Source: Vulcanimicrobiota bacterium
Lineage (GTDB): Bacteria > Vulcanimicrobiota > Vulcanimicrobiia > Vulcanimicrobiales > Vulcanimicrobiaceae
DNA length: 64,000 nt
Assembly: GCA_963795855.1 (NCBI GenBank)
Contig: CAWCIZ010000001.1
Span: 608,001 to 672,000 of the forward strand
Reading direction: 5' to 3'
Made by a program: the position numbers and the translations under genes
In this document: positions 19,603 through 45,175 of the stretch, piece after piece
How positions within the stretch are numbered: the stretch's first letter is position 1
How the letters are laid out: the number at the start of each line of letters is the position of its first letter
Notes under the pieces: generated by a model
What the model saw: only the letters and a program-made list of their open reading frames with translations
Databases searched by the model: none
What the model was told of the DNA's origin: nothing

Positions 19603-19609
19603 GAACGAC

Positions 19610-20944: not shown

Positions 20945-20946
20945 TG

Positions 20947-23654: not shown

Positions 23655-24728
23655 ATGCGCGTCCTGAGCGTCGTCGGCGCCCGGCCGCAATTCGTGAAAG
23701 CGGCGCTGCTCAGTGCGGAGCTCGCGCGGCGCGGCATGGACGAAGTCGTCGTGCATACGGGGCAGCACTACGATCGCGAAATGTCGGCCGTGTTTTTCGA
23801 AGAGTTGCGCTTGCCGGAGCCCGCGCATAACCTAGGCGTTGGCGGAGGCGGCCACGGCGAACAGACCGGTGAAATGCTCAAGCGTTTGGAGCCGGTGATG
23901 CAGCAGGAACGCGCCGACTGGGTGCTCGTGTACGGCGATACGAACAGCACGCTCGCGGGAGCGCTCGCCGCCGCGAAGCTGCACATTCCAATTGCGCACG
24001 TCGAGGCCGGCTTGCGTTCGTTCAACCGTACGATGCCCGAAGAGATCAACCGCATCGTGGCCGATCACATCGCGGATTTATTGTTGGTGCCGACGTCCCA
24101 CGCGGCAAAACAGCTGGCGCAGGAGGGCATCACGCAAGGTGTGCGCGTCGTCGGCGATCTGATGGTCGATCTGGCGCTCCAAGCCGCCGCCGGCGTGCCC
24201 GCGCGGCCGCCGATCCTCGACCGGTTCCAACTGCAGGCCTCCGCGTACGCCATTGCCACGATACACCGCGCTTCGAACACGGACGATCCGCAGACGTTTC
24301 GACGCATCCTGCAAGGGCTGCGCGCCGTCGATTGGCCGGTCGTATTCCCCGTTCATCCGCGTACGCGTGAGGTGGCGCGTCTCGCGGGCGCCGGAGACGG
24401 CGACAATCTGATTCTGTGCGAGCCGCTGCCGTATGCCCAGATGCTTGCGCTGGTTGCGCGTTCCGCGGCGGTCTTTACGGATTCGGGCGGATTGCAGAAA
24501 GAAGCGTTCGTGCTTAAGGTCCCCTGCGTCACATTGCGCGAGGAGACGGAGTGGCTCGACACGCTGGAAGACGGCTGGAACGTTTTGGCCGGCAGCGACC
24601 CCTCCAAAATCGCGGCCGCCGCAAAACGCCCTGTGCCGATGCGTCAAGCGACGCCTTACGGCGACGGACACGCGGCGCGCAACATCGTGGACGCCCTGCA
24701 GGAACGGGCGGCATCCTATGCAGCCTGA
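23655..24728 (+). CDS. Non-hydrolysing UDP-N-acetylhexosamine 2-epimerase (WecB/WbpI/WlbD-like)
   Basis: VGARPQFVK, HTGQHYD, GDTNSTLA, HVEAGLRS, PEEINR, TDSGGLQKEA, YGDGHAA. Confidence 0.93.
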   Translation: MRVLSVVGARPQFVKAALLSAELARRGMDEVVVHTGQHYDREMSAVFFEELRLPEPAHNLGVGGGGHGEQTGEMLKRLEPVMQQERADWVLVYGDTNSTLAGALAAAKLHIPIAHVEAGLRSFNRTMPEEINRIVADHIADLLLVPTSHAAKQLAQEGITQGVRVVGDLMVDLALQAAAGVPARPPILDRFQLQASAYAIATIHRASNTDDPQTFRRILQGLRAVDWPVVFPVHPRTREVARLAGAGDGDNLILCEPLPYAQMLALVARSAAVFTDSGGLQKEAFVLKVPCVTLREETEWLDTLEDGWNVLAGSDPSKIAAAAKRPVPMRQATPYGDGHAARNIVDALQERAASYAA

Positions 24729-25734
24729 GGCCATCGTTCCGGCTGACCGCGTCGCAATCACGGCGGCGGTTGCGGTTTACAACGAAGAAGCGCATATCGC
24801 GCGCTGCCTGGAAGGTCTGCTCTCGCAGCGTTGCGACCAGCCGATCGAGATACTTATCATCGACGGCATGAGCACCGATCGCACGGTCGAGATCGCGCAC
24901 AGTTTCGCACGCTGGGATCCGCGTATCAAAATTCTGCGCAACCCGCACCGTCTGCAAGTCTATGCGTGGAATATCGCGTTGCGCGAAGGGCGCGGCGAGT
25001 ATTTCGCAATGATTCTCGGACACGCGCAGTATGCGGAAGACTATTTCTCCTCGTGTCTGGAAACGCTCGAGCGAACGGGTGCGGTGGCGGTCGGCGGCGT
25101 CCAGCGACCGTGCGCGAGCAGTTTCGTCGGCAAGGCGATAGCCTGGTGCATGTCCAGCCCGCTTGCGATGGGCAATACGCGCTTCCGCTATACGAACGAA
25201 GAAGAAGAGACGGACTCCGTGTTCTCGATTTTCACGCGCATGGAAACGCTTCGCGCGGCCGGCGGCTACGACGAACGGCTGCCGTTTGACGAAGATTCGG
25301 ACCTGAATTATCGGCTGCGAAGCAAGGGCGGCAAACTGATCGTCTCGCCGTCGATTCACGTGCAGTATCACGTCCGCCGCAGCCTGCGAGCGCTTTGGAA
25401 ACAGATGTTCTGCTACGGCTACTGGCGCCGCTGCTGCCAGATGAAGAACGCCGACGCCGTGCCGGTTCGCGTCTTCGCGCCGGCGCTGCTCGTTGCGTGT
25501 CTTGCGCTTTCGGCAGTGACGGCGTTTACGCCGCTGCGCGCGGCTGCCGCGGTGGTTCCGGGGTTGTATGCGGCGTTTCTTGCTCTTACGTGCGTTGCGG
25601 CGGTTCGGCGCGCGAAGCTCGCGGCGGTCATGGTTCCCCCCGCCATCGCGACCATGCACGTCGCGTATGGCGTCGGCTGGTGGAAAGCGTTTTTGACGCG
25701 GCGCAACGGCGTACGGCTGGCGGCGGCGCCGTAA
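24718..25734 (+). CDS. Family 2 glycosyltransferase (ExoA-like)
   Basis: YNEEAHIARCL, IDGMSTDRT, GGYDE..EDSDLNYRL, C-terminal TM helices. Confidence 0.85.
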   Translation: MQPEAIVPADRVAITAAVAVYNEEAHIARCLEGLLSQRCDQPIEILIIDGMSTDRTVEIAHSFARWDPRIKILRNPHRLQVYAWNIALREGRGEYFAMILGHAQYAEDYFSSCLETLERTGAVAVGGVQRPCASSFVGKAIAWCMSSPLAMGNTRFRYTNEEEETDSVFSIFTRMETLRAAGGYDERLPFDEDSDLNYRLRSKGGKLIVSPSIHVQYHVRRSLRALWKQMFCYGYWRRCCQMKNADAVPVRVFAPALLVACLALSAVTAFTPLRAAAAVVPGLYAAFLALTCVAAVRRAKLAAVMVPPAIATMHVAYGVGWWKAFLTRRNGVRLAAAP

Positions 25735-25735
25735 C

Positions 25736-27616
25736 ATGTGCGGCATCGCCGGCATCGTCGGCAACGGCGCGTCGGCGCTCGAGCCCGACGTCCGCACGAT
25801 GCTCGAGTCGCTTTCGCGGCGCGGGCCCGACGGCAGCGGGCTGCATCGTTGGAGCAATGCGGTCCTTGGGCATCGCCGTCTGGCCATCTTCGATCTCACG
25901 GACGCCGGTAAGCAACCGATGCTCTCGCCCGATGGGCGCGTCGGCGTTACGTTCAACGGAGCGATTTACAACTTCACGCAGCTGCGCGAGGAGTTAATCG
26001 GGCGCGGCTACCGGTTTACGAGCCGAACCGATACGGAAGTGCTCGTGCATGGATACGATGCATGGGGCATCGACGCTCTGGTCGGCAAATTGCACGGCAT
26101 GTTCGCGTTCGCGTTGTGGGACGACGCGCGGCACACCCTCTATCTCGTTCGCGATCGTCTGGGCGTCAAGCCGATGTTCTTCGCCGAGCGTGGCGGACGA
26201 GTCGCGTTCGCTTCAACCGCGCGTGCGTTGGACGATGCCGGTTATGCGGGTAGCGTCGATCCGCATGCGGTTGCCGAATTTCTCCAATTCGGTTTCGTCA
26301 CGGACGAGCGATCGATCTACGAAGGCGTTCGTAAACTTGCGGCCGGCCATCTTGCCCGCTGGACGGCCGGCGGTTTGACCGTTACGCCGTACTGGAACAC
26401 CGGCACGCCCTCCAACGATCGGATTGGTTTTGAGGAAGCGGTAGCGGAAACGGAGCGCCTATTTCTGCGTGCCGTCGAAATGCGTCTTCAGGCGGACGTG
26501 CCGGTCGGCGCGTTGCTCAGCGGCGGCGTAGACTCAAGTTTGGTCTGTTGGGGCATTCGTGAACTCGGCGGCGACGTCACTGCGTACACGATTGCGACGC
26601 CCGGCGACGCATCGGACGAAAGCGCCGATGCAACCCAAACCGCGAGAGATCTCGGCATTCGTCACCGCGTCCTCGCGTTGGATCCCAATAATACGCCGGC
26701 GGTGGAGGATCTGACGGCCGCGTACGGAGAGCCGTTCGCATGCGCGTCGGCGCTCGGCATGCTCGCGATTTCCAGCGTTGTTCGGGAACACGCAAAGGTG
26801 TTGCTCACCGGCGACGGCGGCGACGACGTGTTCTTGGGCTACCCGAAAGATTTGTATTATTTTTCGGCACAACGTTTGGCGCGCGCGCTGCCGCCGGGCA
26901 CTCGAGCGCTCTGGAACGCGGCGCGCCCCATGGTTCCCGCATCAGGATCGTTTCGGCGCGCGCGGCATTTCATCGACTACGCGACGGGCGGTTACCCTGC
27001 CGTTCTGGCTGTTTCCGACGCGCTGCCGTATTACCGCGATGCGGGCATGCTGGGCGACCGCCTTCGCGGCGTACGCCTTGCGCGCTGGTCCCAGCCGCCG
27101 GCACGAAACGCGGCCCGGCGCATCATGGAAGAGCACTTGCGCTTCGAACGCGAAACGTATTTCGTCGCGGAATATCTGCCGAAGGTAGACGGCGGGACGA
27201 TGTTTCACGGTCTCGAGGCTCGCGGCCCGCTGCTCGATCAGCATCTGTGGGAGTTTGCTTCCACGCTGCCGTACGGCGTCCGGTTGCACCGCATGACTCT
27301 CAAAGCGATTCTGCGCGAACTCGCCCGGCGGCGAATCGGCGAGCGCGTCGCGCGCGGCGCGAAGCGCGGCTTCGGTATTCCCGTGCAACGCTGGCTCACC
27401 GGGCGGTGGCGTACGGATTTCCTGGAATCGTTCGGCGATTCGGTACTGGCGCGCGAAGGCTGGATCGATGCGCGCGCGGTGCGTTCCGGAATGCAAAAGC
27501 TTGGCGACGGAGAGACCGCGCCGAACCAACTATGGTATCTGTACGTGCTCGAGCACTGGATGCGACGCAGAAACTCGCAAGTGCTCGATGTACGGGAGGC
27601 CGCGGCGACGGGTTAG
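25736..27616 (+). CDS. Asparagine synthase-like glutamine amidotransferase (polysaccharide amidation, WbpS/WbqG-like)
   Basis: MCGIAG N-terminal nucleophile, HRRLAIFD, QPM, TDTEV, LLSGGVDSS, LTGDGGDD, KRGFGIP. Located in a sugar operon. Confidence 0.88.
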   Translation: MCGIAGIVGNGASALEPDVRTMLESLSRRGPDGSGLHRWSNAVLGHRRLAIFDLTDAGKQPMLSPDGRVGVTFNGAIYNFTQLREELIGRGYRFTSRTDTEVLVHGYDAWGIDALVGKLHGMFAFALWDDARHTLYLVRDRLGVKPMFFAERGGRVAFASTARALDDAGYAGSVDPHAVAEFLQFGFVTDERSIYEGVRKLAAGHLARWTAGGLTVTPYWNTGTPSNDRIGFEEAVAETERLFLRAVEMRLQADVPVGALLSGGVDSSLVCWGIRELGGDVTAYTIATPGDASDESADATQTARDLGIRHRVLALDPNNTPAVEDLTAAYGEPFACASALGMLAISSVVREHAKVLLTGDGGDDVFLGYPKDLYYFSAQRLARALPPGTRALWNAARPMVPASGSFRRARHFIDYATGGYPAVLAVSDALPYYRDAGMLGDRLRGVRLARWSQPPARNAARRIMEEHLRFERETYFVAEYLPKVDGGTMFHGLEARGPLLDQHLWEFASTLPYGVRLHRMTLKAILRELARRRIGERVARGAKRGFGIPVQRWLTGRWRTDFLESFGDSVLAREGWIDARAVRSGMQKLGDGETAPNQLWYLYVLEHWMRRRNSQVLDVREAAATG

Positions 27617-28818
27617 GAACCCGGATGCGGCGCCGGCTCGACTAAACCGGTTGCGTCTTGTGAACAGACGCGATCGAGACATGCTGAGAACTTCCGGGCG
27701 AGCGCTACGGACGACGGCAGAACGGAAGGGTCGCTCGACGACTCGTACCGGCCGGCCGCATAACGCGCGTACAATTCACGCAGCGCGCCTTTTGCGCTTT
27801 CCACGTCGTTCGCGAACCATCCGAGCCCAGCATCTCGAACCGTTTCGCGCATCACGCTATCCGCCGGGCCGAATACGAGCATCGGTCGCCGCGCTCCGAC
27901 GTACTCGAGATATTTGCTGCCGCGCTCGGAGGCTGTCGCGGGATCCATGCTGAGAAAGATGAGCAAGCCGGCTGAGTCGCGCTGGCGCAACATCGCCTCC
28001 GCTCGCGGCACGACACCATGCACGCGTACTTGCTGCTCCAGGCCCAAGCGTCGAGCATCCTCGAGCACCTTATCGTTGTCGGGCCCGTAAAAATCGATGA
28101 TCGCCGCTTCCGCCGCCGGATGTCGTTCGTTGCTTAGTTCGCCGAGCGCGCGGAAGAGGATCTCAGGGTTTCGCTTGCCGCCGTACATCGTGCCGGTATA
28201 CACGAGATTGAAGCGTTCGGGTATTTTTTCCGGTACGCTCTGCCACTCGGCGGCGTCGTATCCATTTTCAATCGCCACGACGTCGCGCCCGTGCAGTCGG
28301 GAAAAATCTCCCGCCAGTTCGGGTGATACGGTCGTGATCAGCGCGGCCCGCCGCATCAGCGAGAGTTCGAGGACCTTTTGAAGCGCGCGTTTGACGGGCC
28401 CCCAGCCCATGTACGCGTTTTCGCTCCAGGGATCGCGAAAGTCGGCGATCCAGGGCTTCCCGGTAAGGAGCGAAAGACACGCGGCGACGACGTGCGACGA
28501 CATGGGCAGCGCAGTTGAAAGAATGGCGTCGCAGCCGTCGCGCCTCATCAAGTGGAGACCTCGGTAGATCGCAGGTACAATCCACGGCGCTTCGGGGTCT
28601 GGAAACACGACGATGTTCTTGATTCGCCGCAGAATCGCACGAAACGCCGCCGTTTTCGGCGTACGGGGTATGATGGGCGGCGCTATTGCCGCGGGCTGTG
28701 TCAGGACCGTCACATTCCAGCCAAAATTTGCGGCATACTGTGCGATGTAGCCAGGCCGGAGCGCACCGGGAACCGGTCGCGGTGGAAAGCAGTAGGCAAT
28801 GAGGAGAGCCCGTTTCAT
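27613..28818 (-). CDS. Family 4-like glycosyltransferase
   Basis: IAYCFPP, PWIADFRDPW, NGYD, YTGTMY, SKYLEYVGARRP. Confidence 0.85.
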   Translation of the reverse strand: MKRALLIAYCFPPRPVPGALRPGYIAQYAANFGWNVTVLTQPAAIAPPIIPRTPKTAAFRAILRRIKNIVVFPDPEAPWIVPAIYRGLHLMRRDGCDAILSTALPMSSHVVAACLSLLTGKPWIADFRDPWSENAYMGWGPVKRALQKVLELSLMRRAALITTVSPELAGDFSRLHGRDVVAIENGYDAAEWQSVPEKIPERFNLVYTGTMYGGKRNPEILFRALGELSNERHPAAEAAIIDFYGPDNDKVLEDARRLGLEQQVRVHGVVPRAEAMLRQRDSAGLLIFLSMDPATASERGSKYLEYVGARRPMLVFGPADSVMRETVRDAGLGWFANDVESAKGALRELYARYAAGRYESSSDPSVLPSSVALARKFSACLDRVCSQDATGLVEPAPHPGS

Positions 28819-28829: not shown

Positions 28830-30143
28830 CTAGGGGATCAGAATCTCCGCGGTTCCCGGCGCTAAATCGTCTTGCGGCGTTCCATTGAACGAGACCGTAC
28901 CTCCATCGAGAACACCGTTTCCGCTCAATGCAATGCTGTGCCGATAACCGCCTTCGTTGGGCACCTCTGCCGTGCCGGAATTCGGATTCACGGCAACCTC
29001 ACAGCTCCCAAGCAACTTTCTGCGGTAGTAACAGTACCGGAATTGTTGAACATAGGCTCCGCCCGAGGTCCGCAACTGCTCGATATCCGTCGCGTTCGTA
29101 ACCGGCAACATCGGTACGAACTGCGTTTCCGGAAGCACCTTAAACGTCGAAGGCGGCGAGGAATAGGCCGTCTGGTAGACGGAGTACTTCGGATCGTACG
29201 TGAGCAAAAACGAGGCGTAATCGAACAAGCGCTGTGGAATGACGTTCGAAGCGGTTCCGACACCGCGCGGCCCGTTGACGTAACACCAGAAGCCCGGACC
29301 GGCAGGTTTATGCAGGCGCCGCAAAAGTTGCAGCGTGAGAATTTGTGCGACTTGCTCGGCCGTCCATTGCGTATCGGCGAAACAGCGCTCGTACTGCACG
29401 CCGACAATGTTGCGGCCCTGCAGTACTGCAACTTTTGCGGGCACCACAGATGGACGTACGGTGAGCGTGTTGACGACCATCGGAAACCGGATCTGCGAGA
29501 GCGCATTTTCAACGCCTTGCGTCCACTGCTTCTGATCGAAGTTGCAAGGCAGCGGCTGCATTCCGTAAAACTCGTTCGTGTTGTCGACGAAGAGCAAGTC
29601 AATCGGCGTTCCGGCTCCCGGATTTTGCTCATGAATATCGTCGATATAATCGTCGACCACTTCGCGAGCGAATTGGGTCGCGCCGGCTTTTCGCACGTCG
29701 AGCAGATACGAACTCCCGGAATACGCACGGACGGCATTTCCCGTGCAGTCCATCGTCTCCAGTTCCGGATGGCGCATGATCTTCGGGAACTCGACCTTTT
29801 CCATCGGCTCGGGCACGAACGGATTGACGTAGAGCACCGTTTTGATTCCCGCGCGGCGCACCTCTGCGTACTGACTGTACACCGCGTATGCCCAAGTCAA
29901 ATAAGGCGCGTAGGCGCTTTTGTCTGCGGCGCGTTCCGTTGACGACCAAAGATATTCGGCCGTCTGTACGTGCTCGGGGACGCTCGAGGGCGGGTGAAGC
30001 ATTTCGGTATGCGTGCGCGGCTGCGGGCGCGGCGCTTGCGACGCGTCGGCGGACGCACCTGCGGAATGCGTCTGACACCCCAATGCGCCCAATACGGCAA
30101 CCAGAGCAGCGGATGTGAAAAAGCGTCGGAATCGCGCGTACAT
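28830..30143 (-). CDS. Uncharacterised lipoprotein, family member A (candidate glycoside hydrolase)
   Basis: Lipobox GALGC, HVQTAEYL, YAPYLTWAY, FVDN, QYERCF, GPGFWCY, YASFLLTYDP, GNGVLDGGT. Confidence 0.7.
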   Translation of the reverse strand: MYARFRRFFTSAALVAVLGALGCQTHSAGASADASQAPRPQPRTHTEMLHPPSSVPEHVQTAEYLWSSTERAADKSAYAPYLTWAYAVYSQYAEVRRAGIKTVLYVNPFVPEPMEKVEFPKIMRHPELETMDCTGNAVRAYSGSSYLLDVRKAGATQFAREVVDDYIDDIHEQNPGAGTPIDLLFVDNTNEFYGMQPLPCNFDQKQWTQGVENALSQIRFPMVVNTLTVRPSVVPAKVAVLQGRNIVGVQYERCFADTQWTAEQVAQILTLQLLRRLHKPAGPGFWCYVNGPRGVGTASNVIPQRLFDYASFLLTYDPKYSVYQTAYSSPPSTFKVLPETQFVPMLPVTNATDIEQLRTSGGAYVQQFRYCYYRRKLLGSCEVAVNPNSGTAEVPNEGGYRHSIALSGNGVLDGGTVSFNGTPQDDLAPGTAEILIP

Positions 30144-30180
30144 TCCGTTTTCATGATAGCGGATGCCCCCGCATGCATGC

Positions 30181-30214
30181 GAAAGGCCTGCAGCACGCGC
30201 TACAGGCCCTTTCG
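30181..30214. terminator. Hairpin or terminator between family members B and A
   Basis: GAAAGGCCTG...CAGGCCCTTTC inverted repeat. Confidence 0.55.
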
Positions 30215-30230
30215 TCACACGGGTAATGCC

Positions 30231-32343
30231 CTAGGGAACCAAAATCGCCGCGGTCTTCGAGGCAAGCGAGCCAGGCGCTGCCCCCGTAAAGGTAGCCGTG
30301 CCGCCGTCGAGCACGCCGTCTCCGCTAATGACCATGCTATGCGCGAAGCCTCTTGGATTCGGAACGTTCACGCTTCCACCGGTCGGATTAACCGCAATCT
30401 CACAGGCACCCACGAGCGAGCCTCGGTAGTAGCAGGCGCCGTAGTACTGAACGTACGCGCCGGTGCTGCTCTGGAGACTCCCGATAGTGCTCGGCGCGCT
30501 TGCCGGGCTTAAGGGCACGAAGCCTGTTTCAGGGAAGACCTGGAACGTTGACGGAGCCGTCGCGTACGATTCCTGGAAGAGCGAATAGTTCGGATCGTAC
30601 GTCAAGAGGAACGACGCATATGCGTAGAGGCGCTGTGGAATGGCGCTCGCGCCGTCGACGCTCGTGTTGTCGAGATAACACCACCAGCCCGGTCCGCTTG
30701 AACGTCCTTGCGCTCTAAGCAACGCAAGAGCTTCGATTTGGGAGTTCTCTTCAGCAGACCATTGCGTGTCGTTGAAGCACCGTTCGTATTCCCCGCCAAT
30801 GATGTTTGAAGAACCGAGGTAGTTCACGTAGGTCTGTGTGGTACTCGCGGTGGTGCCGAGTGCGTTGACGACAAAGTTCTGACTCAGTGTGGAAACGACG
30901 GTGTCGAATGCTTGCCCCCACGCCGCCGAATTGTAGTTGCACGGCGTCGCGCCCGTGTTGTACAAGGGACCGCTGTTATCGATGAACATCGCATCCCAGT
31001 CTTGCACGCCCGAGTCTGTACGGAAGAAGTTGGTGGTTGACGTAATAGCTCACGACGTCCGCGTAGTACGACGACGCGGCCGGCGTGCGCGGATCTGAAA
31101 GCAAGCCCGTACCGTTGTAGACGGGCACCGCATTGCCGCTGCAATCCATCGCGCGCGCGCTCGCGTATGAGCCCTTCAGATCGCTGAGTTCGTATTCGGC
31201 GTTCTGAGGCATGACGGGGTTGATATAGAGAATCGTCTTGATGCCCGCTTCGAACGTCGAGAGCATCGTGCTGGTTTTCGTGTACGCCCAGCTGAGGTAT
31301 GGTGCGTAAACACTCGGATTGGTGGCAACTTCAGTCGAACTCCACAAGTACGTCGCCGTCTGTACGTGCTGCATGGAGATCGTCATCGGTGCAGATGGCG
31401 TCGGTACGGATGTCGGTACTGAGGTTGGCGTGGGCGTAGGTGCAGGTGAGGCTGTAGGCGCGTACGTCGGTACTGCGGTCGGAGCGGCCGTTGGCGTTGG
31501 GGCTGCACTTGCCGTCGGCGCCGTACTGGGGGAAGCAGAAGCGGCTGGAGCCGGCGTGGCGGCCGAAGCGACCGACGTTGCGAAATACGCAACGGATGCG
31601 GACCCGGTGCCCGTCACCGTTGCCTGCTGACCGATCGAAACCGTTCCGGAAATTGACGTGGCCGCCACGATCCCGATTGGGATGGGCGGTCCGGACACGG
31701 GCGCGAGCGTCATGCCGTATTGCGTGAGTTTCTGAACCGTTCCCGTTACCGAAAACGGCGTCGGCGCAGCGGTGAATGCAGCCACCAGGTATGCCGTCAC
31801 TCCAGAGCTTGCCGCGCCTGCGCCGCTGATTTCTACGTACTGCCCGACGGCAGGATGCGCGTTCGCGTAGGTCGTCGTGGAGTTCGTCGTAACCGATACG
31901 GCGCTGCCGGAATCACTCCGGATCGTAAAACCGCTCGCGGTCGAACCTGTATACGTTCCACCGATCTCCAGGGTGCCCAAAGGCGCCGTGACGGTTGAAG
32001 AAGCGGATTGTTTTACGCTCGTCGCGGCGATCGTTCCGGCTGATCCGCCGCTCGTACCGGACACGTCGACGTTCTCGCCGACATACGGCGGGGTACCCGC
32101 CACGACGGTCGATCCCGACGTGGTAACAGTAACTTGCGAACCGCCGGTCTCTTGCAACAGAAACGCCGTCGCGGACTCGAATGCGGTGATGGTGCCGGAG
32201 ACCGAAATGATTTGCTGAGTCACCGAACCGGGGACGGTCGGGACGAGCGACGCGCCGCCGCCGCCGCCTCCACCGCCGCAAGCACTAAGAAGGCTCGATA
32301 ATACAAGCGCCGTACTGGTTACTCGCACACGCGAGCGGGACAT
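30231..32343 (-). CDS. Uncharacterised lipoprotein, family member B, with three N-terminal DUF5666-like beta repeats (frameshift ~31010)
   Basis: Lipobox LLSAC+G8, repeats ending (Y)VGENVDVSG / VGQYVEISG / IGQQATVTG, TAAPT linker, HVQTATYL; then FIDN, EYERCF, GPGWWCY, YASFLLTYDP, GVLDGGT. Confidence 0.7.
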
Positions 32344-32629
32344 GATGCAGCCCTCTTTGTTAAGGAGGGAGGCTCGACACTTACACTATCGGAACTAAGT
32401 GATAATCTTTTTAGCCTACTCCCCCTACGAGGAAGCGAGCGGAGCATCGTTCGGCGCGCAGTCCGCAAGCGGACACGGTCCTGGGCTCATTGGCCCCATT
32501 TTAATGAAATGGTCCTAAAAGCGCGAGAAAGGTCCCAATGTTGGGAAAGTCGGTACGCATACGGGACCGCGATCTGCCCACGTGGACCCCGTCATAAGTG
32601 CCATTCACTGTTCAGGCGAAGGGGACACC

Positions 32630-33268
32630 GTGATAACGACCGACACCGCACGCATCTACGTGATCGAGGGGCAGGTGCTTTTTGGAAAGGCCCTGTGTCA
32701 AGTATTTTCCATGGATCCCACGCTTCAGATCGTTGGGGATTCCGATAGCGTTACACCGACCGCCCTGGTAAAGGCGAAACCGGACATCATTCTGCTGGAC
32801 GTCGACGGCGGCGCACTCGAATTGGGTGAAGCGCTAGCCGCGTGCCGCGAGGCGGCACCGCAAGCGCGCGTTTGCGTTCTGTCCATGCGCCCGCAAGCCG
32901 AGATGATGCAATGCTGCCTGGCCGCGGGCGCAGACGGCTACATCATCAAAGACGTCACGCCGGCAGAACTCATTCGCGCCGTGAAAATCGTCGCGAACGG
33001 CGAGACGTACGTCGATCCACGCGTCGCCGGCGGCCTCCTGCGCCGGCGCAGCATGAGCAACGGCCGTCCGGACATCAACGAGCTTTCCGTCCGCGAGACC
33101 GAAGTGATTCGTCTGATCGCCGAAGGTCTCTCGAACAAAGAGATTAGCGCGCGGCTCAATCTCTCCGAGAAGACGATCAAGAATCACGTCAGCCGCATTT
33201 TCTCGAAACTCAACATTTACGCGCGTACGCAGGCCGCTGTGCACGCGATCAAAATGGGTTTGGTCTAA
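32630..33268 (+). CDS. NarL/FixJ-family response regulator (REC + LuxR HTH)
   Basis: PDIILLD, GADGYIIK, LSVRETEVIRLIAEGLSNKEISARLNLSEKTIKNHVSRIFSKL. GTG start after GAAGGGG. Confidence 0.93.
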   Translation: MITTDTARIYVIEGQVLFGKALCQVFSMDPTLQIVGDSDSVTPTALVKAKPDIILLDVDGGALELGEALAACREAAPQARVCVLSMRPQAEMMQCCLAAGADGYIIKDVTPAELIRAVKIVANGETYVDPRVAGGLLRRRSMSNGRPDINELSVRETEVIRLIAEGLSNKEISARLNLSEKTIKNHVSRIFSKLNIYARTQAAVHAIKMGLV

Positions 33269-33310
33269 GAAGTATGGTAACGGGGCGCGAGCGTATCGCG
33301 TCCCGTGCCG

Positions 33311-34001
33311 TTACTTTCGAGCCACGCCGAACATGACGTAGCGCCAATCGGGCGGTGCGATTTTGTCGAACAGCATTCCGTCGATCGTGCCGAACGCGCG
33401 CGCAAGAGCAGCGGACCTTCCGAAGAGGCCCGTGAACCCCGTCGTGGCGTATTCGACCGACGAGAATGGCGAGAGATACTCGAGCATTTCCGAGATGCTT
33501 ACGTACCGCCAGATCGAATTCCACTTCACGAAGCGGCGCCGCGCGGCCTGATGCAGCGGTGAGGCGCGCAAATTTTCCGCGAACAGCAGCACGCCGCCGG
33601 GCTTTAGCGCGCGATGCATTGCGCGAACCGCTTCAGCTTGGCGCGACGCATTCCCATCCCACGCGACGCCGCCGAGCAGCGACTTGAACGCGACGGCGTC
33701 AAAGTAATCCTCGTACGGGATCGCCGTAGCGTCGATCGCTTCGTACGTTATCCGATCGGCCACGCCGTAGGCGGCGTGCATCGGCGCCGCAATGTCGCGG
33801 TTGCTCTCAAGGTCCGAACAAACGGCCCAATGGCCCTGCAATGCGAGCCACAGCGATAGGCCACCCCGCCGGGCCCCAGACTCTCAAGCAAGTAGACGAT
33901 GGGGCCAAACGAGCGTGGCTTCTCCAAAACGCTAAGGCCCGGGACCAATTTACAACGTCCCACTCGATAACGTCATTCAGCAGGGACGCGCTCTCTCGCA
34001 T
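33311..34001 (-). CDS. Class I SAM-dependent methyltransferase (frameshifts ~33840-33880)
   Basis: IEWDVVNWSRAL, G-rich motif I near 33880, CSDL, DATAIPYEDYFD, RALKPGGVLLFAEN. Confidence 0.75.
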
Positions 34002-34023
34002 TGCGCCGTTATACCCAAAAGCA

Positions 34024-34053
34024 AAGAAGCACCGCGCGAGCGCAGTGCTTCTT
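34024..34053 (-). terminator. Intrinsic terminator after family member C
   Basis: AAGAAGCAC...GTGCTTCTT stem with a T-tract on the minus strand. Confidence 0.65.
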
Positions 34054-34074
34054 GCTTGCTGCGTTTTTAGTAGT

Positions 34075-35719
34075 TTAGGGCGTCAGGATGAGACCGGATT
34101 TCGGACCCATGCGAGTCGGCACGCCGCCGCTGAACGAAGCCGTTCCGCCGTCGAGCACGCCGTTGCCGCTAAGGACCATGCTATGACGCAATCCCCATGG
34201 ATTCGGAACGCTGACCGAAGACGTCGTACTCGGATTCACGATAATTTCGCAATGTCCGAGAGAACTGCCGCGGTAGTAGCAACTGTTGTAGCGTTGCTCG
34301 TACGCACGGGTCGAGGTCAACAAACTCGCCACACTGGCCGGTATGCTTACCGGACTGAGCGGCACGAAACCGGTTTCCGGAAAGACCTTGAATGCCGAGG
34401 GCGTTGTAAACGATTCTTCGAACACCGAGTAATTCGGATCGTACGTGAGAAGGAACGATGCGTACGCGTACTGACGCATCGGAATGGAACTTGCGCCCGA
34501 TGCAGTTGTCAGATCAACGTAACACCACCAACCCGGTCCAGCTGGTTTGCGTTCCCGCTTGAACAGCGAGACGGTTTGTAGCTGCGAATCTTCCTCAGAC
34601 TGACCACAGGCTGGTTACGTAACACAGTTCGAACTGGCCACCGGAAACGTACGACGGTGCAAGCCGATTAACAAATGTAGGTACGTCACTCGGCGCAACG
34701 GAAAGCCCGTTCAGCACAAAGTGTTGCCCGCTTGCCGCCATAGCGGCATCCTCATGACTGGTCCAGGACGACAGATTGTAGTCGCAGGGCGTCCCCGAAA
34801 CGTGGTACAGCGGCCCATCATTGTCCATGAAAATATAGTTCCACGGCTGCGCATATCCAGGGTTTGCTGCTCGTGCGGTCGCAGCGTAGTGGCTTACGAC
34901 GTTTGCGAAATACGATGGAAATGCACCTTTTTCCGGATCGGTCAGCAATCCGCTCCCGCCGTAACTAACGATCGTCGAGCCGGAGCACGTTTTCGCTTCG
35001 GCGCCGGAGTAGCTCGTACGAAGCGCTCCGAGTTCGTATAGGCTGCCGTTGGGCTGGAACGCGCTCGAATAAATGACGGTCTTTATCCCCGACGCCTGCG
35101 TGACGCCCAGGCGATTCATGGACGTATAGGCGTATGTCAGATACGGCGCGTACCGGCTCGGAGAAGACGTCTCTTCCGTCGCCGTGAGCAAATATTCAGC
35201 GGTCTGCACGTGCTTCGGAACGCCGGCGCTCGGCGGCCCGGGCGGCGGCGTCGCAGCCGGCGACGACGTCGTCGACGAGGTCGGAGTCGTGGGCGGCGGC
35301 GTTGCCGCTGCCGTATAGGTTACCGTCTTCGCGGTCATCGAACCGCCGCTGCGGCACGAGCCGGTTCCGGTCGCTTCAATCGGCATCCCGACTTTCACGG
35401 GATAGCCCAGATAGGGATAAAACTTGGTCGTCGCCCGCGTGTAGTACACGTACATCGTGCCGCAGCTCGGGCTGACCGTTCTGACGACGAACTTCGATCC
35501 GTCGGCACTGATGACCGACGCTTTGAGTGTGAATGAACTGGCGGCCGTCGTCGACATGGTGCCGATGTCCGACTGCCCAGCCGAGTCCGTGACCGGACTC
35601 GATAGCGGGTCTTGCTGAACCGCCACCGGCGGCGTCGCTCCGGACTGCCCGCCGCAGCCCGCAGCCAAAAATGAAAAGCCCAGCACTCCAATGAGCGCAA
35701 AGGCGCGCATGACCTTCAT
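34075..35719 (-). CDS. Uncharacterised lipoprotein, family member C (frameshift ~34600)
   Basis: GGAGG RBS, lipobox LAAGC, HVQTAEYL, YAPYLTYAY, FMDN, QFELCY, GPGWWCY, YASFLLTYDP, GNGVLDGGT. Confidence 0.7.
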
Positions 35720-36027: not shown

Positions 36028-36885
36028 ATGCTGCGCGCAGTATTCGTAGGATACGACAACAACTTGAACCGGGTGATCGAGCACTGGCTGATGCAGCACA
36101 CGGACCTCGTCGGATGCGTTTGGGTGCCTTCGCAAACGCAGTGGCTCACCAATCGCGCCGGCAAGGTGAATTTCATCAAGCGCCGGTTGCGGCTCAAGGG
36201 ACCCCTACGGGCTCTGGACGAGGCGCTGTTTTATCTGCTGTACCACGGAACGGAAGCAAAGGCGCCCAGCACGGTGGCCGCTCAAAAACTGATTCGCGAG
36301 TACTGGACCGCCGTGCCGCAGCGCACGCACGCGCGCGCCTTTCGCAGCCCGAAAATCAACGACCCGGCCGTTCATGAATTTCTCGCCGAGGTCAAGCCGG
36401 ACGTCATTTTCTCGCACTGCATCAACCAGTTTTTCGGGAAGAAACTTCGCTCGGCCGCTCCGCACGGCGTCATGCTCTGGCATGTCGGCATTACGCCGGA
36501 ATACAAGGGCGTGTATTCGCCGTTTTGGACGATGCACAACGCCGACTTCAACAATTTCGGCTACTCGCTGATCCGCATGAACGAGGAATTGGACGCGGGA
36601 GAGATTTTCGTGCAAGGGCGTCTGACCAACGTGGACATCCGCAACGACAACCACGAGCTCATCGAGCACAAGGCGATATTCGGAAGTTTTCCGGACGTCG
36701 CGCGATTCATCACGCAACTCGAAGCGGGAACGGCGAAACCGATCGAGCGGCCGGACGCAAAGGCCGGGTACTACTCGTATCCCGGCATCTCCGACTACAT
36801 TCGACAGCGGCTGCGCGTGCATCGCGCACTGCGCAACGGCACCGCGCCCATTCAAAGTGCCGCGCGCGCAACTGAAACTTCTTAA
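36028..36885 (+). CDS. Formyltransferase-family protein (sugar N-acyltransferase candidate)
   Basis: PDVIF, WHVGITPEYKG..SPFW, GYSLIRMNEELDAGEI: formyl_trans_N fold motifs. Confidence 0.75.
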   Translation: MLRAVFVGYDNNLNRVIEHWLMQHTDLVGCVWVPSQTQWLTNRAGKVNFIKRRLRLKGPLRALDEALFYLLYHGTEAKAPSTVAAQKLIREYWTAVPQRTHARAFRSPKINDPAVHEFLAEVKPDVIFSHCINQFFGKKLRSAAPHGVMLWHVGITPEYKGVYSPFWTMHNADFNNFGYSLIRMNEELDAGEIFVQGRLTNVDIRNDNHELIEHKAIFGSFPDVARFITQLEAGTAKPIERPDAKAGYYSYPGISDYIRQRLRVHRALRNGTAPIQSAARATETS

Positions 36886-38051
36886 GAGGCTTGCATCATC
36901 GCTGCGCCGGCGCCGGCTGCGTCGCGCACGGCCGCGATGACGTCGTCCGCGTCCGCGTCGGTCATCGTCGGATAGAGCGGCAACGATACGATTTCCGTGG
37001 CAAGGCGCTCCGTGCCCGGCAGCGCTGCAGAGTACGTCCGGTAGGCTTCGAAGTGGTGCGTGGGGATGTAATGCACCGACGTACCGACGTTCCGGTCTTT
37101 GAGCGCTTCGATGAAAGCGTCGCGCGAAATGCCGGCGTCGCGCTCGCTCACGCGGATGACGAACATACACCAACTGTGCCGGTCGCCGTCGTTTGAAGGC
37201 GATGCTTGGCACGTGATGCCCGGCACGTCGGCCAGCCCGCGCAAATAGCGTTCAGCGATGACGTCGCGCCGGTCTTGCATGGCTTGCAGGCGTTCCAACT
37301 GAACCAAACCCATGGCAGCGGCGATGTCGGGCATGTTGTATTTGAATCCCGGCTCGCGCACTTCATAGCGCCACGAGCCGCGCTGCGTATACCGCTTCCA
37401 TGCATCCTTGTCCATGCCGTGCAGGGAAAGCACGCGCACGCGCTCCATGATGCGGTCGTCGTTCGTCACCAGCATGCCGCCTTCGGCGGTCGTGAGATTC
37501 TTCGTCGCATAGAAACTGTACGCCGCGAGATCCGAATGCGTTCCGGCCCACCTGCCGCGATCGAGCATACCGGCTGCGTGCGCCGCGTCCTCGATGAAAA
37601 CGATCTGCCGCTCCTTACAGAATGCGGCGAGCGCGGCGCTATCCATAGGCCGGCCGGCATAGGGCATGGCGATAATAGCGCGGGTCGCGGGCGTGAGCGC
37701 CGCGGCAAACTGTTCGACGCCGGCGGTCATCGTGCCGGGATCCACGTCGCAGAAGACGGGGCGCGCCCCGACTTCGAGCGTGCACTGCGCGCCGGCAACG
37801 AATGTGAGCGACGGCATGACGACGTCGTCACCCGGCTTCACGCCGGCCGCAAGAAGTCCGACGTGCAATGCGGCGGTGCAACTGTTGACGGCGATGGCAT
37901 GACGAACACCCGCGGCCCTCGCGAACGCTTGCTCCAATTCGCGAACTTTCGGTCCGGTTGTCAGCCAGCCGTTACGAATACATTCTTCGACGGCGGCCGC
38001 CTCCGCGTTGCCGGTGTCCGGCCGGCAATACGGCAAAAACGAATCACGCAT
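36882..38051 (-). CDS. DegT/DnrJ/EryC1/StrS sugar aminotransferase (SpsC/WlbF-like)
   Basis: GWLTTGPKV, NSCTAALH, EDAAHA, SFYATKNLTTAEGG, LHGMDKDAWKRY, GFKYNMPD, SVHYIP. Confidence 0.92.
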   Translation of the reverse strand: MRDSFLPYCRPDTGNAEAAAVEECIRNGWLTTGPKVRELEQAFARAAGVRHAIAVNSCTAALHVGLLAAGVKPGDDVVMPSLTFVAGAQCTLEVGARPVFCDVDPGTMTAGVEQFAAALTPATRAIIAMPYAGRPMDSAALAAFCKERQIVFIEDAAHAAGMLDRGRWAGTHSDLAAYSFYATKNLTTAEGGMLVTNDDRIMERVRVLSLHGMDKDAWKRYTQRGSWRYEVREPGFKYNMPDIAAAMGLVQLERLQAMQDRRDVIAERYLRGLADVPGITCQASPSNDGDRHSWCMFVIRVSERDAGISRDAFIEALKDRNVGTSVHYIPTHHFEAYRTYSAALPGTERLATEIVSLPLYPTMTDADADDVIAAVRDAAGAGAAMMQAS

Positions 38052-39447
38052 GGACGGTTACTCCTTGAACGACGGCGCTTCTCTCCGCAGCGGGCGCCGG
38101 TTCCGGTGCCGCATTTCTCGTGAGCGAAACGAGCATGAAGGCGAGCCAAACGCATTTCTGCAGCATCATGTCCGCGAAAAGACCGGAAATAAAAAGTCCG
38201 ATGATGGAGGCTTCGAGCACCAAGCGCAGACGATACCGCGGATCGGAGATCGGAATACCGCGCAACGCGCGGAACTGCCAAAACCATCCCATCAGCAGTA
38301 GGGCCAACCCAATGACGCCGAGTTCGACCGCATGCCCGACGATGATGTTGTGCGAGACGTGTCCCCAGCCGATGTACTGCGGCTGAAAGACCTGGATCCA
38401 CGCGCGGTCGTAGGCAAGCGGAAAATTGTTGTAACCGACGCCGAAAAGCCAGTTTTGCTTGAACGCGACGAAGCCGACGTGCCAAATGTCCGTGCGTCCC
38501 GCACCGCCGGTAGACAGGGCGTTTGCCCACCGCTGTCCGAGCGTCGGAGCCGCGTACGCTAGCCCCAATGCCGCGACGATGCCGACAGGCCATGCCAAAC
38601 GTGCGCGGTTCGGTTCGCGAACCAGCAGGTAGACGATCATCACGATCAAGCCAAGCTCCGGACCGCGTGCCCCCGTCAGCACGAATACCGGCAAGATGAT
38701 GCCGCCGCAAATGAAGGCCAGCACTCGGGTTCCCAACGTTTTTCCGAACACGATGCTCATCAATGCGATGGCTGCCGGCAGCAGCATGGTGCCGGCGAGA
38801 TAGTCGGGATTCCAGTTCACGTTGCCCGTCGCCAGCCACATACGGTTTTCTTTGATTGCAACGCCGCTGTGGTAGAGGTACAAGACGTAAGCCGCGGCGG
38901 CCGCTCCGCCGACCATCGTAAGTTGTACGACGGTGGTGAGCGTGCGCATGTCGGTGCGAATCAGCGAAATGACTGCATAGAGCCCGAAGAGCAAAAGTAC
39001 CGTGGGGATGACGTCGAGGCTCTGCTTGGGATCGATCGCCCAGAACGCGCTCGCCGTGATCCAAAGGGCGTACACGAACCACATCGCGACGCTGCGATCG
39101 GGATCCGAGTACCGTTTGCTGCGCAGGATGTAGAAGAGCAGCGCAGCGGCGCTGGCCGCACCGAACAGCTTCGTAACGGTGGCGGCCGCGCCGACCTTCA
39201 GCACCGCGTCGAAGGGCGTCAGAAACGCGTAGGCGCCGAACGGGAACAGCAGCGGGGCGAAAAGTGAAAGCCCGAAAAGAATCGGCAGCGTTACGGCGCC
39301 GATCGCGCCAACCGCGCCCGTCTTCGTGCCCGAAAGCGCAACGCCGATGAACGCCGCAAAGGCGCCTAAAAGCGCAACGATGACACCCCCGGCGGTGCTG
39401 GCCGTGCGCCGCCCGGCGAGACGAATGTTTCCTACCATTGAAGCCAT
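38044..39447 (-). CDS. Wzy polymerase / O-antigen ligase family membrane protein
   Basis: About 12 TM segments, NPDYLA, TGARG, GRTDIW, FGVGYNNF, SHNIIVGHAVELGVIG. Confidence 0.85.
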   Translation of the reverse strand: MASMVGNIRLAGRRTASTAGGVIVALLGAFAAFIGVALSGTKTGAVGAIGAVTLPILFGLSLFAPLLFPFGAYAFLTPFDAVLKVGAAATVTKLFGAASAAALLFYILRSKRYSDPDRSVAMWFVYALWITASAFWAIDPKQSLDVIPTVLLLFGLYAVISLIRTDMRTLTTVVQLTMVGGAAAAAYVLYLYHSGVAIKENRMWLATGNVNWNPDYLAGTMLLPAAIALMSIVFGKTLGTRVLAFICGGIILPVFVLTGARGPELGLIVMIVYLLVREPNRARLAWPVGIVAALGLAYAAPTLGQRWANALSTGGAGRTDIWHVGFVAFKQNWLFGVGYNNFPLAYDRAWIQVFQPQYIGWGHVSHNIIVGHAVELGVIGLALLLMGWFWQFRALRGIPISDPRYRLRLVLEASIIGLFISGLFADMMLQKCVWLAFMLVSLTRNAAPEPAPAAERSAVVQGVTVHA

Positions 39448-39510
39448 TCTAATCGAAGCGGCCGCGCAGCCCGGAGTTGGAGACGGCCTCGGACCATGGG
39501 AAGAGCGGCC

Positions 39511-40833
39511 CTACCGCGCAGGGTGCAAGAGGCGGCGCCCGTCTCGCAGCATCCTGGCCAGGAACGCCCAGTAGACGAGCAAGTCGGCGCCCGTGGGCAC
39601 GAGCATCGAGCGCAGTCCGATCGCCGAACGCTTCCGGAAGTACCAGATGCCGACCGACTGTCCGACCAGGTAACCGGCGCTCGATCCGATCGCGGCGCCG
39701 ACCATCCCGTAGCGGTGAACGAGCGCAAACGTCGTCGCTATGCACACCAGCGCCGATAGCGAAGCCAACCGAAGCGCCACGCCCGGTATTCCGATCTTGA
39801 GCGTGAAGTAACTCGAAAGCGGGCTGCTCAGGGCGAGAACGATGACGCCGATCAGCAGAACGTCGAATGACGGAACGAGCGGAAGGAACTTCGCACCGTA
39901 CAGCAATTGAACGACCGGCGCAGCCAGGACGAACAGCGGCACGCAGATCAGCAGCGCGATGAGCAAATTATGGCGCACGCACCGCGCGGTCAGCACTGCC
40001 GCTTCGTGAACCTCCATCCCGCCGATATGGGGTGAGGTGACGAGCGCGGCAACCTGCGTCGGAACGAGCAAACTCTCCGCACCCGCGACCGCGATGCTGT
40101 ACATGCCCAGCGCCGCCGGCGGAAGAAAGAGCGCGACGATATACAGGTCGGCGCGATAGTTCAGCAGCGACACGACGTTCACAGCCGTGACCTTCATGCA
40201 AAAGGCCCAGTACTCGCGAAAGCCGATCGTGTCGGCTCCGGCAAGGTGCCGGCGCGCGTGTCGCACGATGTACGCAAGGGAAACGGCGCCTGCGAGGCTG
40301 GTGCCGGCGACCCACGCGATAATTGCAATACCGGGCGAACGCTCGACGATCACGAACGCCGCGACCGTCGCAGCGATGGTGAAGACCGTTTGCAGCGCGG
40401 CGATCGTGGTCGAAAAACGCACTTGGTGCACGCCGAGCGCGTAGCCCGATGCGAGATTCAGCAGCGCAAGCGACGGCAGCACCGCAAGCGCGGGAATGAG
40501 CGCCCCGGGCTGATGCGCGAGGTACGTCAACGGTACCAAGACCAGCGCAGCGGCCGCGGTGAGGAGAAACGTCGACAGAAGAACGGGGCGCAGAAACACG
40601 GCGCCTGGGCTGCGGTTCAGCAAGAAATACGTCGTTGCGCTCGTCAGTCCGCCGAACGCCGACGCGACGAGCGCGGCCTCGACGCCGGGCAGCGCATAAA
40701 CGCCGCGCCCGGCAGGGCCGAGCGCGCGAGCGGTAATCACGGCGAGAGCAGCGGTCAGACCGATCTTCGCGAGGCGTACGACGAACGTGTAAAGTCCGTC
40801 GTACATCACGCGATGCGCGCGTTCAGACTGCAC
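39511..40833 (-). CDS. Wzx polysaccharide flippase
   Basis: ARALGPAGRGVYAL, LLNYRADLYIV, LGMYSIAV, LLYGAKF, YGMVGAAIGSS; many TM segments. Confidence 0.88.
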   Translation of the reverse strand: MQSERAHRVMYDGLYTFVVRLAKIGLTAALAVITARALGPAGRGVYALPGVEAALVASAFGGLTSATTYFLLNRSPGAVFLRPVLLSTFLLTAAAALVLVPLTYLAHQPGALIPALAVLPSLALLNLASGYALGVHQVRFSTTIAALQTVFTIAATVAAFVIVERSPGIAIIAWVAGTSLAGAVSLAYIVRHARRHLAGADTIGFREYWAFCMKVTAVNVVSLLNYRADLYIVALFLPPAALGMYSIAVAGAESLLVPTQVAALVTSPHIGGMEVHEAAVLTARCVRHNLLIALLICVPLFVLAAPVVQLLYGAKFLPLVPSFDVLLIGVIVLALSSPLSSYFTLKIGIPGVALRLASLSALVCIATTFALVHRYGMVGAAIGSSAGYLVGQSVGIWYFRKRSAIGLRSMLVPTGADLLVYWAFLARMLRDGRRLLHPAR

Positions 40834-41878
40834 TGTGGAAGAGCACTTCCGCGATGGTTTTCAGCAGAATCGCGCCGTCCAAAACCGGCGAAGCGCGTTC
40901 GACGTAAAAGAGGTCGTAGGGAAGGATGTCCTTGACGTCGTCCGGTTCCAAATTCCGCTTGCGGTACACCTGCGCCCACCCGGTTATTCCGGGGGCGACG
41001 ATGTGGCGCTGATCGTACGCCGGCAGCTGTTGGCCGAAACGGCGCGCAAACTCGACCATTTCGGGACGCGGCCCGACGATCGACATCTCGCCTTTGAGAA
41101 CGTTGAAGAGCTGCGGCAGTTCGTCGATGCTCGTGCGGCGCAAGAATGCGCCGACGCGCGTGATGCGTGAATCACCGGGACGCGCCCATTCAGCTCCGGC
41201 GTCGCGGCGCATGGTGCGGAATTTGTACACGTCGAAGCGCGAGCCGTCGCGGCCCACGCGTTCCTGTTTGAAGAGAATCGGCTCGCCCGACTCGGCGTAT
41301 ATCGCGATCGCGGCTGCAAGCATGATCGGCGAGGAGACGACCAGCGCGACGGCCGCCACAGCGAGATCGAAGCAGCGTTTCGCCAGCAAATAGCCCGCCG
41401 ATTCACGCGCATGCCAAGCTGCCGGCGTTATCGACGCGGCACCCGCGGGCGGGGGCGGCCCGGCGCGGCGCTGCAAATGCAGTCCGGTGTGCCACGCAGA
41501 CGTTGCGAGCGCCGAAAACAGCAGCATCACGACGATCGGCACGAAACCGATTTGCCCGACGCCGCCGACGATCAGCAGAATGGGAATCGCTGCCGCCAGC
41601 ACGGCGGTGCAGGCATAATATATTTCGTCGCGCGGCAGAACCGCATACGATCGCTTATACAAACCGCAGGCCCAGAAGCCCGCGCACACCAAGGCCGTCG
41701 CGACGAGCGAGGCGGTTACGGAGTTCGACTCGCCGCCGATCACGACGAGTGCGATGAACAGCACGATTCCGCCGTCACCCAGCGCGAGCGCTGCGGTCGA
41801 ACGGATGGAGAGGTGTTCGGGTATGCGCGCTTCCCGCCGGCGCGATACCGAGAAAGAGGTTTGGAATTCCGTCAGCAT
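40823..41878 (-). CDS. Priming sugar transferase (polyprenyl glycosylphosphotransferase)
   Basis: KRCFDL, FKQERVG, YKFRTM, RITRVGAFLRRTSIDELPQL, SIVGPRPE, PGITGWAQV. Confidence 0.93.
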   Translation of the reverse strand: MLTEFQTSFSVSRRREARIPEHLSIRSTAALALGDGGIVLFIALVVIGGESNSVTASLVATALVCAGFWACGLYKRSYAVLPRDEIYYACTAVLAAAIPILLIVGGVGQIGFVPIVVMLLFSALATSAWHTGLHLQRRAGPPPPAGAASITPAAWHARESAGYLLAKRCFDLAVAAVALVVSSPIMLAAAIAIYAESGEPILFKQERVGRDGSRFDVYKFRTMRRDAGAEWARPGDSRITRVGAFLRRTSIDELPQLFNVLKGEMSIVGPRPEMVEFARRFGQQLPAYDQRHIVAPGITGWAQVYRKRNLEPDDVKDILPYDLFYVERASPVLDGAILLKTIAEVLFHSAV

Positions 41879-44684: not shown

Positions 44685-45175
44685 CGAGCAACTCTTCCAT
44701 CGAAATCGGGCCGGGATGCTCCCAGCGGATTACGCCCGTTGCGTCGACGTACAGGGTCGTCGGTATCATGCGCGCGCCGAGCACCGTGTGCGTGATTCCG
44801 CTGAGGTCGACATAGAGCGGATATGCCAAATGAAAGGCCCGCGCGAATGCCTGGACTTGCACGCCCGCTTCCTGTTGGTCGATGCCGACGACGTCGATTC
44901 CGCGGGCGCGAAGGCGCGGCGCAGACTAAAGCCAGGTCGGGCGCTTCCGCGCGGCACGGCCCGCACCAGGTGGCGAATACGTTAATGATCATCGGCTTGC
45001 CGGTGGCGCGCAGCGTGTACGCCGAGCCGTATAAGGAAGTCACGCGCAGCGGCACGAGCCGGTCGCCCGCATGCAGCATCCGGTATTGCAAGTCGTGCTC
45101 GTGGCGTGCGACGAGCAGCGCGATTGCGGCCAAGGCAAGACCGGCCAGCCATCCGTGCGCGCGGAGGATCCTCAT
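44674..45175 (-). CDS. TlpA/ResA-like membrane-anchored thioredoxin (frameshift ~44920)
   Basis: N-terminal TM, INVFATWCGPCRAE, then IPTTLYVDATGVIR...GPI in the second frame. Confidence 0.8.

Follow-up and report, generated by a model that had tools for sequence, protein, structure and literature searches.

Exported glycosidases encoded among the genes that make a polysaccharide are well known as a general idea, and the exopolysaccharide operons concerned usually hold one such hydrolase. PslG (GH39), PelA, PgaB, BcsZ and PssZ belong here, and hydrolases in other biosynthetic operons have been proposed to act on their own polymer in passages of a report on such operons (10.1101/032714). Glycoside hydrolase family 168 (GH168) comprises endo-fucanases of fucan-degrading marine bacteria and has, according to an excerpt on its structure, a (beta/alpha)8 barrel with a C-terminal beta subdomain (PMC12534559). 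In this study, we analysed a 64,000-nt stretch of a Vulcanimicrobiota genome (contig CAWCIZ010000001.1, positions 608,001 to 672,000; hereafter the window), in which three minus-strand genes at 28830-35719, here called A, B and C, share one domain of ~384 residues. Our favoured reading, held with moderate confidence, is that A, B and C act as retaining endo-alpha-glycanases on the polymer of the cell itself. Its computed basis is a GH168-like fold, the placement and near-invariance of an Asp/Glu pair, lipoprotein signals, and the position of the genes in a Wzx/Wzy/Wza/Wzc locus together with their co-variation with it.

The shared domain and its relation to GH168

Paralogue A (28830..30143, minus strand) is intact and encodes 437 aa, comprising a lipoprotein-type signal (Cys23), a short linker and the GH168-like domain. 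Paralogue B spans 30231-32343 and would encode ~703 aa if read through: its 5' frame (30976..32343, minus) carries the lipobox LSAC, three DUF5666-like beta repeats, a P/T/S/A linker and the first third of the domain, and its 3' frame (30231..31049, minus), after a +1 frameshift, carries the FIDN Asp, the YERC Glu and the remaining domain. Paralogue C spans 34075-35719 (~547 aa if read through), with a lipoprotein-type signal, one DUF5666-like repeat, a P/T/S linker and the domain through the FMDN Asp and the FELC Glu in the 5' frame (34595..35719, minus), followed after a +1 frameshift by the 3' frame (34075..34614, minus). When the breaks in B and C are read through with X, domain identity is 45% (A-B), 41% (A-C) and 50% (B-C), and tblastn between the paralogues gave E values of 8e-93 and 3e-74. 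A sequence-only reading of this DNA had described a shared domain of ~380 residues with eleven ordered motifs, and both statements hold: all eleven occur in that order in A, B and C alike, ten being matched by pattern and CYYR..CExxVNP, whose spacing lay outside the first pattern, being located in the alignment. Its description of the domain as Cys- and aromatic-rich stands modestly for the aromatic residues (11-12.5% vs 7.5% in window proteins) and was overstated for Cys (6 in 384, or 1.6%, vs 1.2%). The six Cys are each kept in 89-104 of 104 family sequences, five of them nearly invariably, and this conservation suggests that they form three disulfides.

Structure prediction and fold search indicate that the family domain is a (beta/alpha)8 barrel with a C-terminal beta subdomain resembling GH168, in keeping with the earlier expectation of a TIM barrel. 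In the predicted fold, D136 lies directly after strand 132-135, at the end of strand 4, and E201 ends strand 195-201, which is strand 6. These predicted catalytic residues are 65 residues apart and correspond in A to Asp187 (codon 29583-29585) and Glu252 (codon 29388-29390). The Asp and Glu that had been picked out from the FxDN and ExC motifs are thus the pair at the ends of strands 4 and 6, and both are kept in 103 of 104 sequences at ~30% overall identity. The family Asp aligns to D172 of 9joc when a profile is compared with Protein Data Bank (PDB) sequences, while the Glu was assigned from its position among the strands and from an alignment with a GHL15 protein rather than by superposition. 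The sole member of the 104 without the catalytic Glu (L011:7694-9808, plus) lies in a locus that holds two other copies; a frameshift error at that site might account for the loss.

The GH168 endo-fucanases compared were Fun168A (8YA6/8YA7), Fun168D (9JOC/9JOF), 9F9V, 9NHF and PbFucA (8RG3). The family has its Asp on strand 4 and its Glu on strand 6, as do the GH168 nucleophile and acid/base; it differs in showing 10-15% identity to the GH168 structures in structural alignments, in its six Cys, and in its setting, as lipoproteins or secreted proteins encoded in Vulcanimicrobiota biosynthetic loci, whereas GH168 enzymes come from marine fucan degraders. The putative equivalents of the GH168 -1 subsite residues Tyr99, Asn101 and Asn218 are a Tyr in 103/104 sequences, a position with N, D or S, and, by strand matching only, a strand-5 Asn in 99/104. 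No conserved Lys corresponding to the GH168 'polar knuckle' Lys66 (with Glu65) was found after strand 2 by strand order without superposition; positions 35-37 there are Y/E/Q, T/P/V and mixed. Searches of PDB sequences found no significant similarity to GH168 members, the best E value being 0.13, and none at all with profiles A1 and A4.

The GHL1-15 groups were defined in 2011, and GHL15 is described, in a portion of one account, as hypothetical glycoside hydrolases with a predicted TIM barrel (PMC5765458). The predicted barrel of our family agrees with this. Matches to the Pfam GHL15 model (PF14885, cut-off 27 bits) occur in 24 of 103 family members at E<=0.1 (best 9.7e-9), and five of the 10 over-cut-off GHL15 matches in 151 genomes coincide with family matches; a member in L048 scores 30.5 bits. 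The ESM Atlas clusters nearest A and a homologue are GHL15 at 0.95, and NCBI gives some members the name 'putative glycoside hydrolase'. The family, which had not been recognised from the letters, therefore lies within an already named group. A itself has no Pfam or NCBIfam domain match; A, B and C have no GHL15 match at E<=0.01, nor A at E<=0.1 (B and C scanned as separate pieces), and a search of the genome with the GHL15 model yields another gene only. Comparison with other GHL15 proteins gave weak profile matches (hhalign E 7e-5 to 3e-3). With the strong GHL15 protein L063 the values were 1e-4 and 7e-5, with Asp and Glu in register, and L063 matches GH168 Fun168A at E 3e-7. The missing GHL15 matches of A, B and C and the weak profile comparisons point to a separate GHL15 branch. 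PDB 9NHF bears the name of a GHL15 protein under a title that calls it a family 168 hydrolase, so GH168 overlaps GHL15. Our family thus probably forms a GHL15 branch of its own that is sister-like to GH168 and probably acts on a new substrate.

The sequence-only reading had looked instead to GH114 and GH166, but the closest solved family is GH168. The endo-galactosaminidases of GH114 (Ega3), GH166 (PelA), GH191 and GH135 resemble the family in having a barrel, an Asp/Glu pair and an insertion that follows strand 3, and in GH114, GH166 and GH191 the Asp nucleophile and Glu acid/base lie 58-69 residues apart, as stated in an excerpt (PMC12054363). The 103 members scanned matched 20 Pfam families, GH114 not being one of them, and no Ega3, PelA or GH191 chain appeared in the PDB sequence searches.

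Lipoprotein-type Cys residues are present in all three genes (ALGC, Cys23 in A; LSAC, Cys22 in B; AAGC, Cys22 in C) after basic and hydrophobic segments, as judged by eye and pattern, and are retained in close orthologues. The lipobox attributed to each gene is fully canonical only in B. The phylum's cultured representative has an envelope of Gram-negative type, according to part of its description (PMC9758169), and A, B and C could equally face the periplasm or the outer cell surface. A repeat profile seeded from DUF5666 matches and trained on homologues only found no repeat in A, three in B (residues 50-110, 129-187 and 201-258) and one in C, which bears out the reported difference in tethers; the B linker comprises 64 residues (91% P/T/S/A), and one B repeat matches DUF5666 itself weakly (E 7e-5, under the cut-off). 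Graded spacing from the membrane is not what is conserved, as the repeat number ranges from 0 to 5 across the family and, in 13 of the 17 other loci scored, the gene at position A encodes a signal peptide but no lipobox (12 by pattern and one pattern false positive judged by eye). Of the four A-position genes with a lipobox, one is actually a B-type gene.

A variable part of a polysaccharide locus

A neighbourhood survey based on our own gene calls and labels covered 40 loci (from 34 genomes, as counted by title), of which 29 hold at least two polysaccharide genes, four are short contigs with one and seven have none. Twenty further stretches, hand-picked from 19 genomes without the double family 4 glycosyltransferase (GT4) gene, comprised 16 polysaccharide loci of other layouts and four that were not. 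The suggested link to polysaccharide loci is thus borne out in most cases. The family is present in 39 of 40 genomes with the double GT4 gene and in 53 of 261 without it, in a hand comparison among kin that are not independent. Stand-alone copies are often accompanied by a locus copy in the same genome (G254, G079, G103, G166, G232 and G121).

Sequence divergence within these loci was uneven. Compared with the window, the same-genus genomes G254 and G160 show 85-86% identity in Wzc and 79-81% in Wza, 44-49% in Wzy and 31-34% between their family members and A, B and C. Locus L001, by comparison with the window, shows 65% in Wzy, 72% in the family 2 glycosyltransferase (GT2), 68% in AsnB, 73% in the formyl- and methyltransferase and 55-64% in the family members. 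Family identity correlates with that of Wzy (rho 0.50, n=29) and GT2 (rho 0.71, n=16) and is uncorrelated with that of Wzc (rho -0.26, n=6). In following Wzy and GT2 rather than Wzc, the family genes, position C of locus L002 excepted, resemble the portion of the locus that is variable and specific to the polymer.

A quickly built tree with 104 domains (seven duplicates and fragments shorter than 300 aa excluded) placed A, B and C in one 18-row clade with genes of L001-L006 (support 97, and 100 in a 36-row tree). Strand-end residues typical of this clade are Tyr35 (18/18), Asn137 (17/18) and Gln273 (15/18), which differ elsewhere; Trp235 occurs in 18/18 within it and in 20/86 outside. In most other loci the A-position gene encodes a signal-peptide protein that lacks a lipobox, and these genes group in a separate 14-row clade. 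A tree topology uniting every A-position gene in one clade was rejected (p-AU 1e-11).

In the window, a GT4 gene (27613..28818, minus) lies directly downstream of A. The nucleotide-sugar arm (17640..27616, plus) encodes a 4,6-dehydratase, a 6-dehydrogenase and a Gfo/Idh/MocA dehydrogenase (all three broken), a hexapeptide acetyltransferase, a DegT aminotransferase, a non-hydrolysing 2-epimerase, a GT2 and an AsnB-like amidotransferase. The assembly arm (36882..45082, minus) encodes a DegT aminotransferase, a Wzy_C membrane protein, a Wzx flippase, a priming phosphoglycosyltransferase, a GNAT protein, the double GT4 and a broken TlpA-like thioredoxin. It is followed by a Wza-type export protein (Poly_export and two SLBB domains) and a Wzc tyrosine autokinase with one frameshift near its start (45362..48424, plus). 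The presence of Wza and Wzc indicates a capsule or exopolysaccharide locus.

Proposed function and its alternatives

As proposed here, A, B and C would be exported, lipid-anchored enzymes cutting the cell's own Wzy-made capsule or exopolysaccharide. By analogy with GH168, the Asp would serve as nucleophile and the Glu as acid/base, with a covalent glycosyl-enzyme intermediate. Relatives with the Asp-beta4/Glu-beta6 arrangement cleave alpha bonds and the locus has GT4 enzymes, so the cleaved bond may be alpha-linked. Five types of enzyme make UDP-ManNAc3NAcA by the WbpA/B/D/E/I route, as outlined in part of one paper (PMC10622841), and five adjacent genes of the window (6-dehydrogenase, Gfo dehydrogenase, acetyltransferase, aminotransferase and 2-epimerase) match these at the level of enzyme type; the polymer may for this reason be rich in acylated amino sugars and uronic acids. 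The task would be to trim, release or clear the polymer during export or remodelling. The substrate signature is common to the copies while their tethers differ, so a single polymer is probably attacked by all of them, each from another position. Ega3 and PelA likewise act on their host's own polymer. Like the exopolysaccharide-operon hydrolases, A, B and C would be exported glycosidases among polymer-making genes; those belong to other glycoside hydrolase families, whereas the present loci hold one to four paralogues with modular tethers.

Several results weigh against this proposal. The sequence-only link to GH168 is weak (E 0.13 with one profile and none with another), and a Wzy_C match does not discriminate between polymerase, ligase and O-oligosaccharyltransferase; the genome has four genes of this kind. 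Polysaccharide neighbours are lacking in 7/40 and 4/20 loci. Co-variation, computed among genomes that are kin, is partial: family identity is uncorrelated with that of the priming phosphoglycosyltransferase (-0.20, n=20), the double GT4 (0.04, n=13) and GNAT, rho for the three spanning -0.2 to 0.09, and the C-position gene of L002 falls in another clade than the A and B genes of that locus. An intact member also lies on a viral contig.

With the same retaining chemistry, the proteins could instead be transglycosylases that pass the cut chain to another chain or a surface acceptor and so cross-link or fasten the capsule. FunA, the founder of GH168, transglycosylates, according to an excerpt (PMC7401878). 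Two to four long-tethered anchored copies per locus exceed the needs of a clean-up hydrolase, and most loci pair anchored copies with one unanchored copy. We nevertheless regard this as rather unlikely, because the solved relatives are hydrolases and no acceptor-binding domain is conserved; sequence and fold search cannot tell transfer from hydrolysis. A specific form of the idea, which we consider slightly less likely still, is a capsule-assembling set in which anchored copies cut and re-join exported Wzy chains, to each other or to a surface acceptor, while release or remodelling of the chains falls to the unanchored copy, and a change of polymer type brings a change of the whole set. Were it true, Wzy-type capsule attachment and cross-linking would resemble the work of fungal wall transglycosylases, and a new glycoside hydrolase family sister to GH168 would act on di-N-acylated uronic acid polymers.

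Degradation of other cells' polysaccharides, such as competitor capsules or soil glycans, with the locus position explained by co-regulation or hitch-hiking, would suit the catabolic nature of the characterised GH168 enzymes, the stand-alone copies (L043, L046, L048, L054, L055, L057, L059, L090, L092, L094 and L095), the LamG domains of some members and the four more GHL15-type genes of the genome outside such loci. It is improbable, given that the family stays within biosynthetic loci of several layouts and turns over with polymer-specific genes, and that no sugar transporter or exo-glycosidase was found among the recurring neighbours. Anchors that mainly bind the polymer and keep the capsule at the surface, with catalysis slight or absent, the lectin role earlier entertained, would fit the anchored, multi-copy proteins with extended tethers and the one member in 104 without Glu, but are very improbable because binding-only relatives are expected to lose the catalytic residues, which are here near-invariant (103/104).

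A branch of the uncharacterised GHL15 group gains a biological setting here, and the GH168 scaffold, known from marine fucan breakdown, is seen to have been recruited to the capsule loci of a barely cultured soil phylum. Our literature searches turned up nothing on such a role in Wzy-type loci of Vulcanimicrobiota, which thus appears undescribed. Activity on another substrate would likely make the family the founder of a new CAZy family. As the type of sequence follows that of the locus, hundreds of natural variants could serve as enzymes for rare amino-uronic acid polymers, and they allow testing of how the specificity of a glycanase follows its polymer.

Frameshifts, distribution and further genes

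B and C are not single open reading frames (ORFs) in this assembly, the frame changing near 31010-31050 in B and near 34600 in C. Their spans (2113 and 1645 bp) are both 3n+1, one extra base each, with no in-frame stops or truncations, and the B- and C-position genes are single ORFs in L001, L002, L004 and the same-genus G254. With intact homologues from related loci as queries, frame changes were found in 10 of 51 genes of the assembly, most of them one-base gains (the script was rough, and off-frame matches may account for one or two counts). The essential gene valS, of which a single copy was found in the assembly, carries four or five. We conclude that the frameshifts in B and C are very probably assembly errors. 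That they are real, with B, C and much of the locus decaying and A alone intact, would accord with the higher count in the window (6/20 vs 4/31 elsewhere) and with five of the six genes belonging to the locus, but is distinctly unlikely in view of the broken valS, the one-base gains and the intact orthologues; it concerns this strain only and is compatible with the functional readings above. Many one-base frame changes at 17715-21941 (nucleotide-sugar genes), 44677-45082 (TlpA-like), 46282-46523 (wzc) and 48914-51543 (valS) suggest an error-prone stretch of the assembly. The TlpA-like gene is split by them, as is, on contig C3, a gene of GHL15 type by a frameshift there.

With A as query, 117 proteins were found among 8000 scored candidates and 351 representatives at 50% clustering; a profile search found 322 proteins. 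The titles of the 40 loci read Vulcanimicrobiota or Eremiobacterota, except for five 'uncultured' or 'unidentified' and two Acidiferrales/Acidoferrum. Within the phylum, 92 of 301 genomes match, namely 80/206 and 11/22 in two families plus the window's own genome (G000), and none of the other 72 genomes does. The intact member on the 92.6-kb IMG/VR viral contig (L062:4716-6101, plus) is 37% identical to A, keeps Asp and Glu, has a signal and an S/T/P linker, and adjoins an SPFH gene and an RNase H-like exonuclease; a phage may thus carry an enzyme that cuts capsules, or the contig may be mis-called and the gene belong to a host. In G000, a second GHL15 branch comprises four scattered genes (C2:241902-243311, C1:122200-124023, C1:287452-288972 and C3:935644-937387; L061, L072-L075) outside polysaccharide loci, with neighbours judged from translations; three have lipoprotein starts. 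The C3 gene, split by a frameshift, has a tether 44% identical to that of C, and GH168 structures are matched by its profile. The family domain is fused to LamG domains (up to 1555 aa) or, in one database protein, to a Wzy_C protein; these fusions are L009:1969-4467, L048:918-5585, L088:7924-10956 and P0174.

Other genes recur around the family. The LuxR/NarL-type response regulator (32582..33268, plus) is divergent from B, conserved in position in many loci, and in several of them it shows 91-100% identity where the adjoining genes show 30-60%. A SAM (S-adenosylmethionine) methyltransferase (33311..33841, minus) between C and the regulator is also present in L001, L004 and L005, and a formyltransferase-family gene (36028..36885, plus) in L001 and L004. 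A terminator-like hairpin of 13 pairs with a T tail (34024..34053, minus) lies just after C; such sites are overall no commoner than in shuffles. The TlpA/redoxin-like thioredoxin gene (44677-45082, minus), back to back with wza, is a conserved locus member also present in L003, L021, L022, L035, L036, L040, L042 and L045, and, speculatively, its product might serve the disulfides of A-C-type proteins. D-glucuronyl C5-epimerase-like genes (PF06662), not found in G000, occur in the sister loci L001, L002, L004, L005, L036, L089 and L091. L087 has a heparinase II/III-like gene, and L084-L086 and L088 have a GINT1_N gene beside the family member. At the edge of the window's locus, two lipoprotein-like genes without a Pfam match (14689-15597 and 15880-16800, both plus) encode a Gly run and a P/T linker, and similar genes occur in L034.
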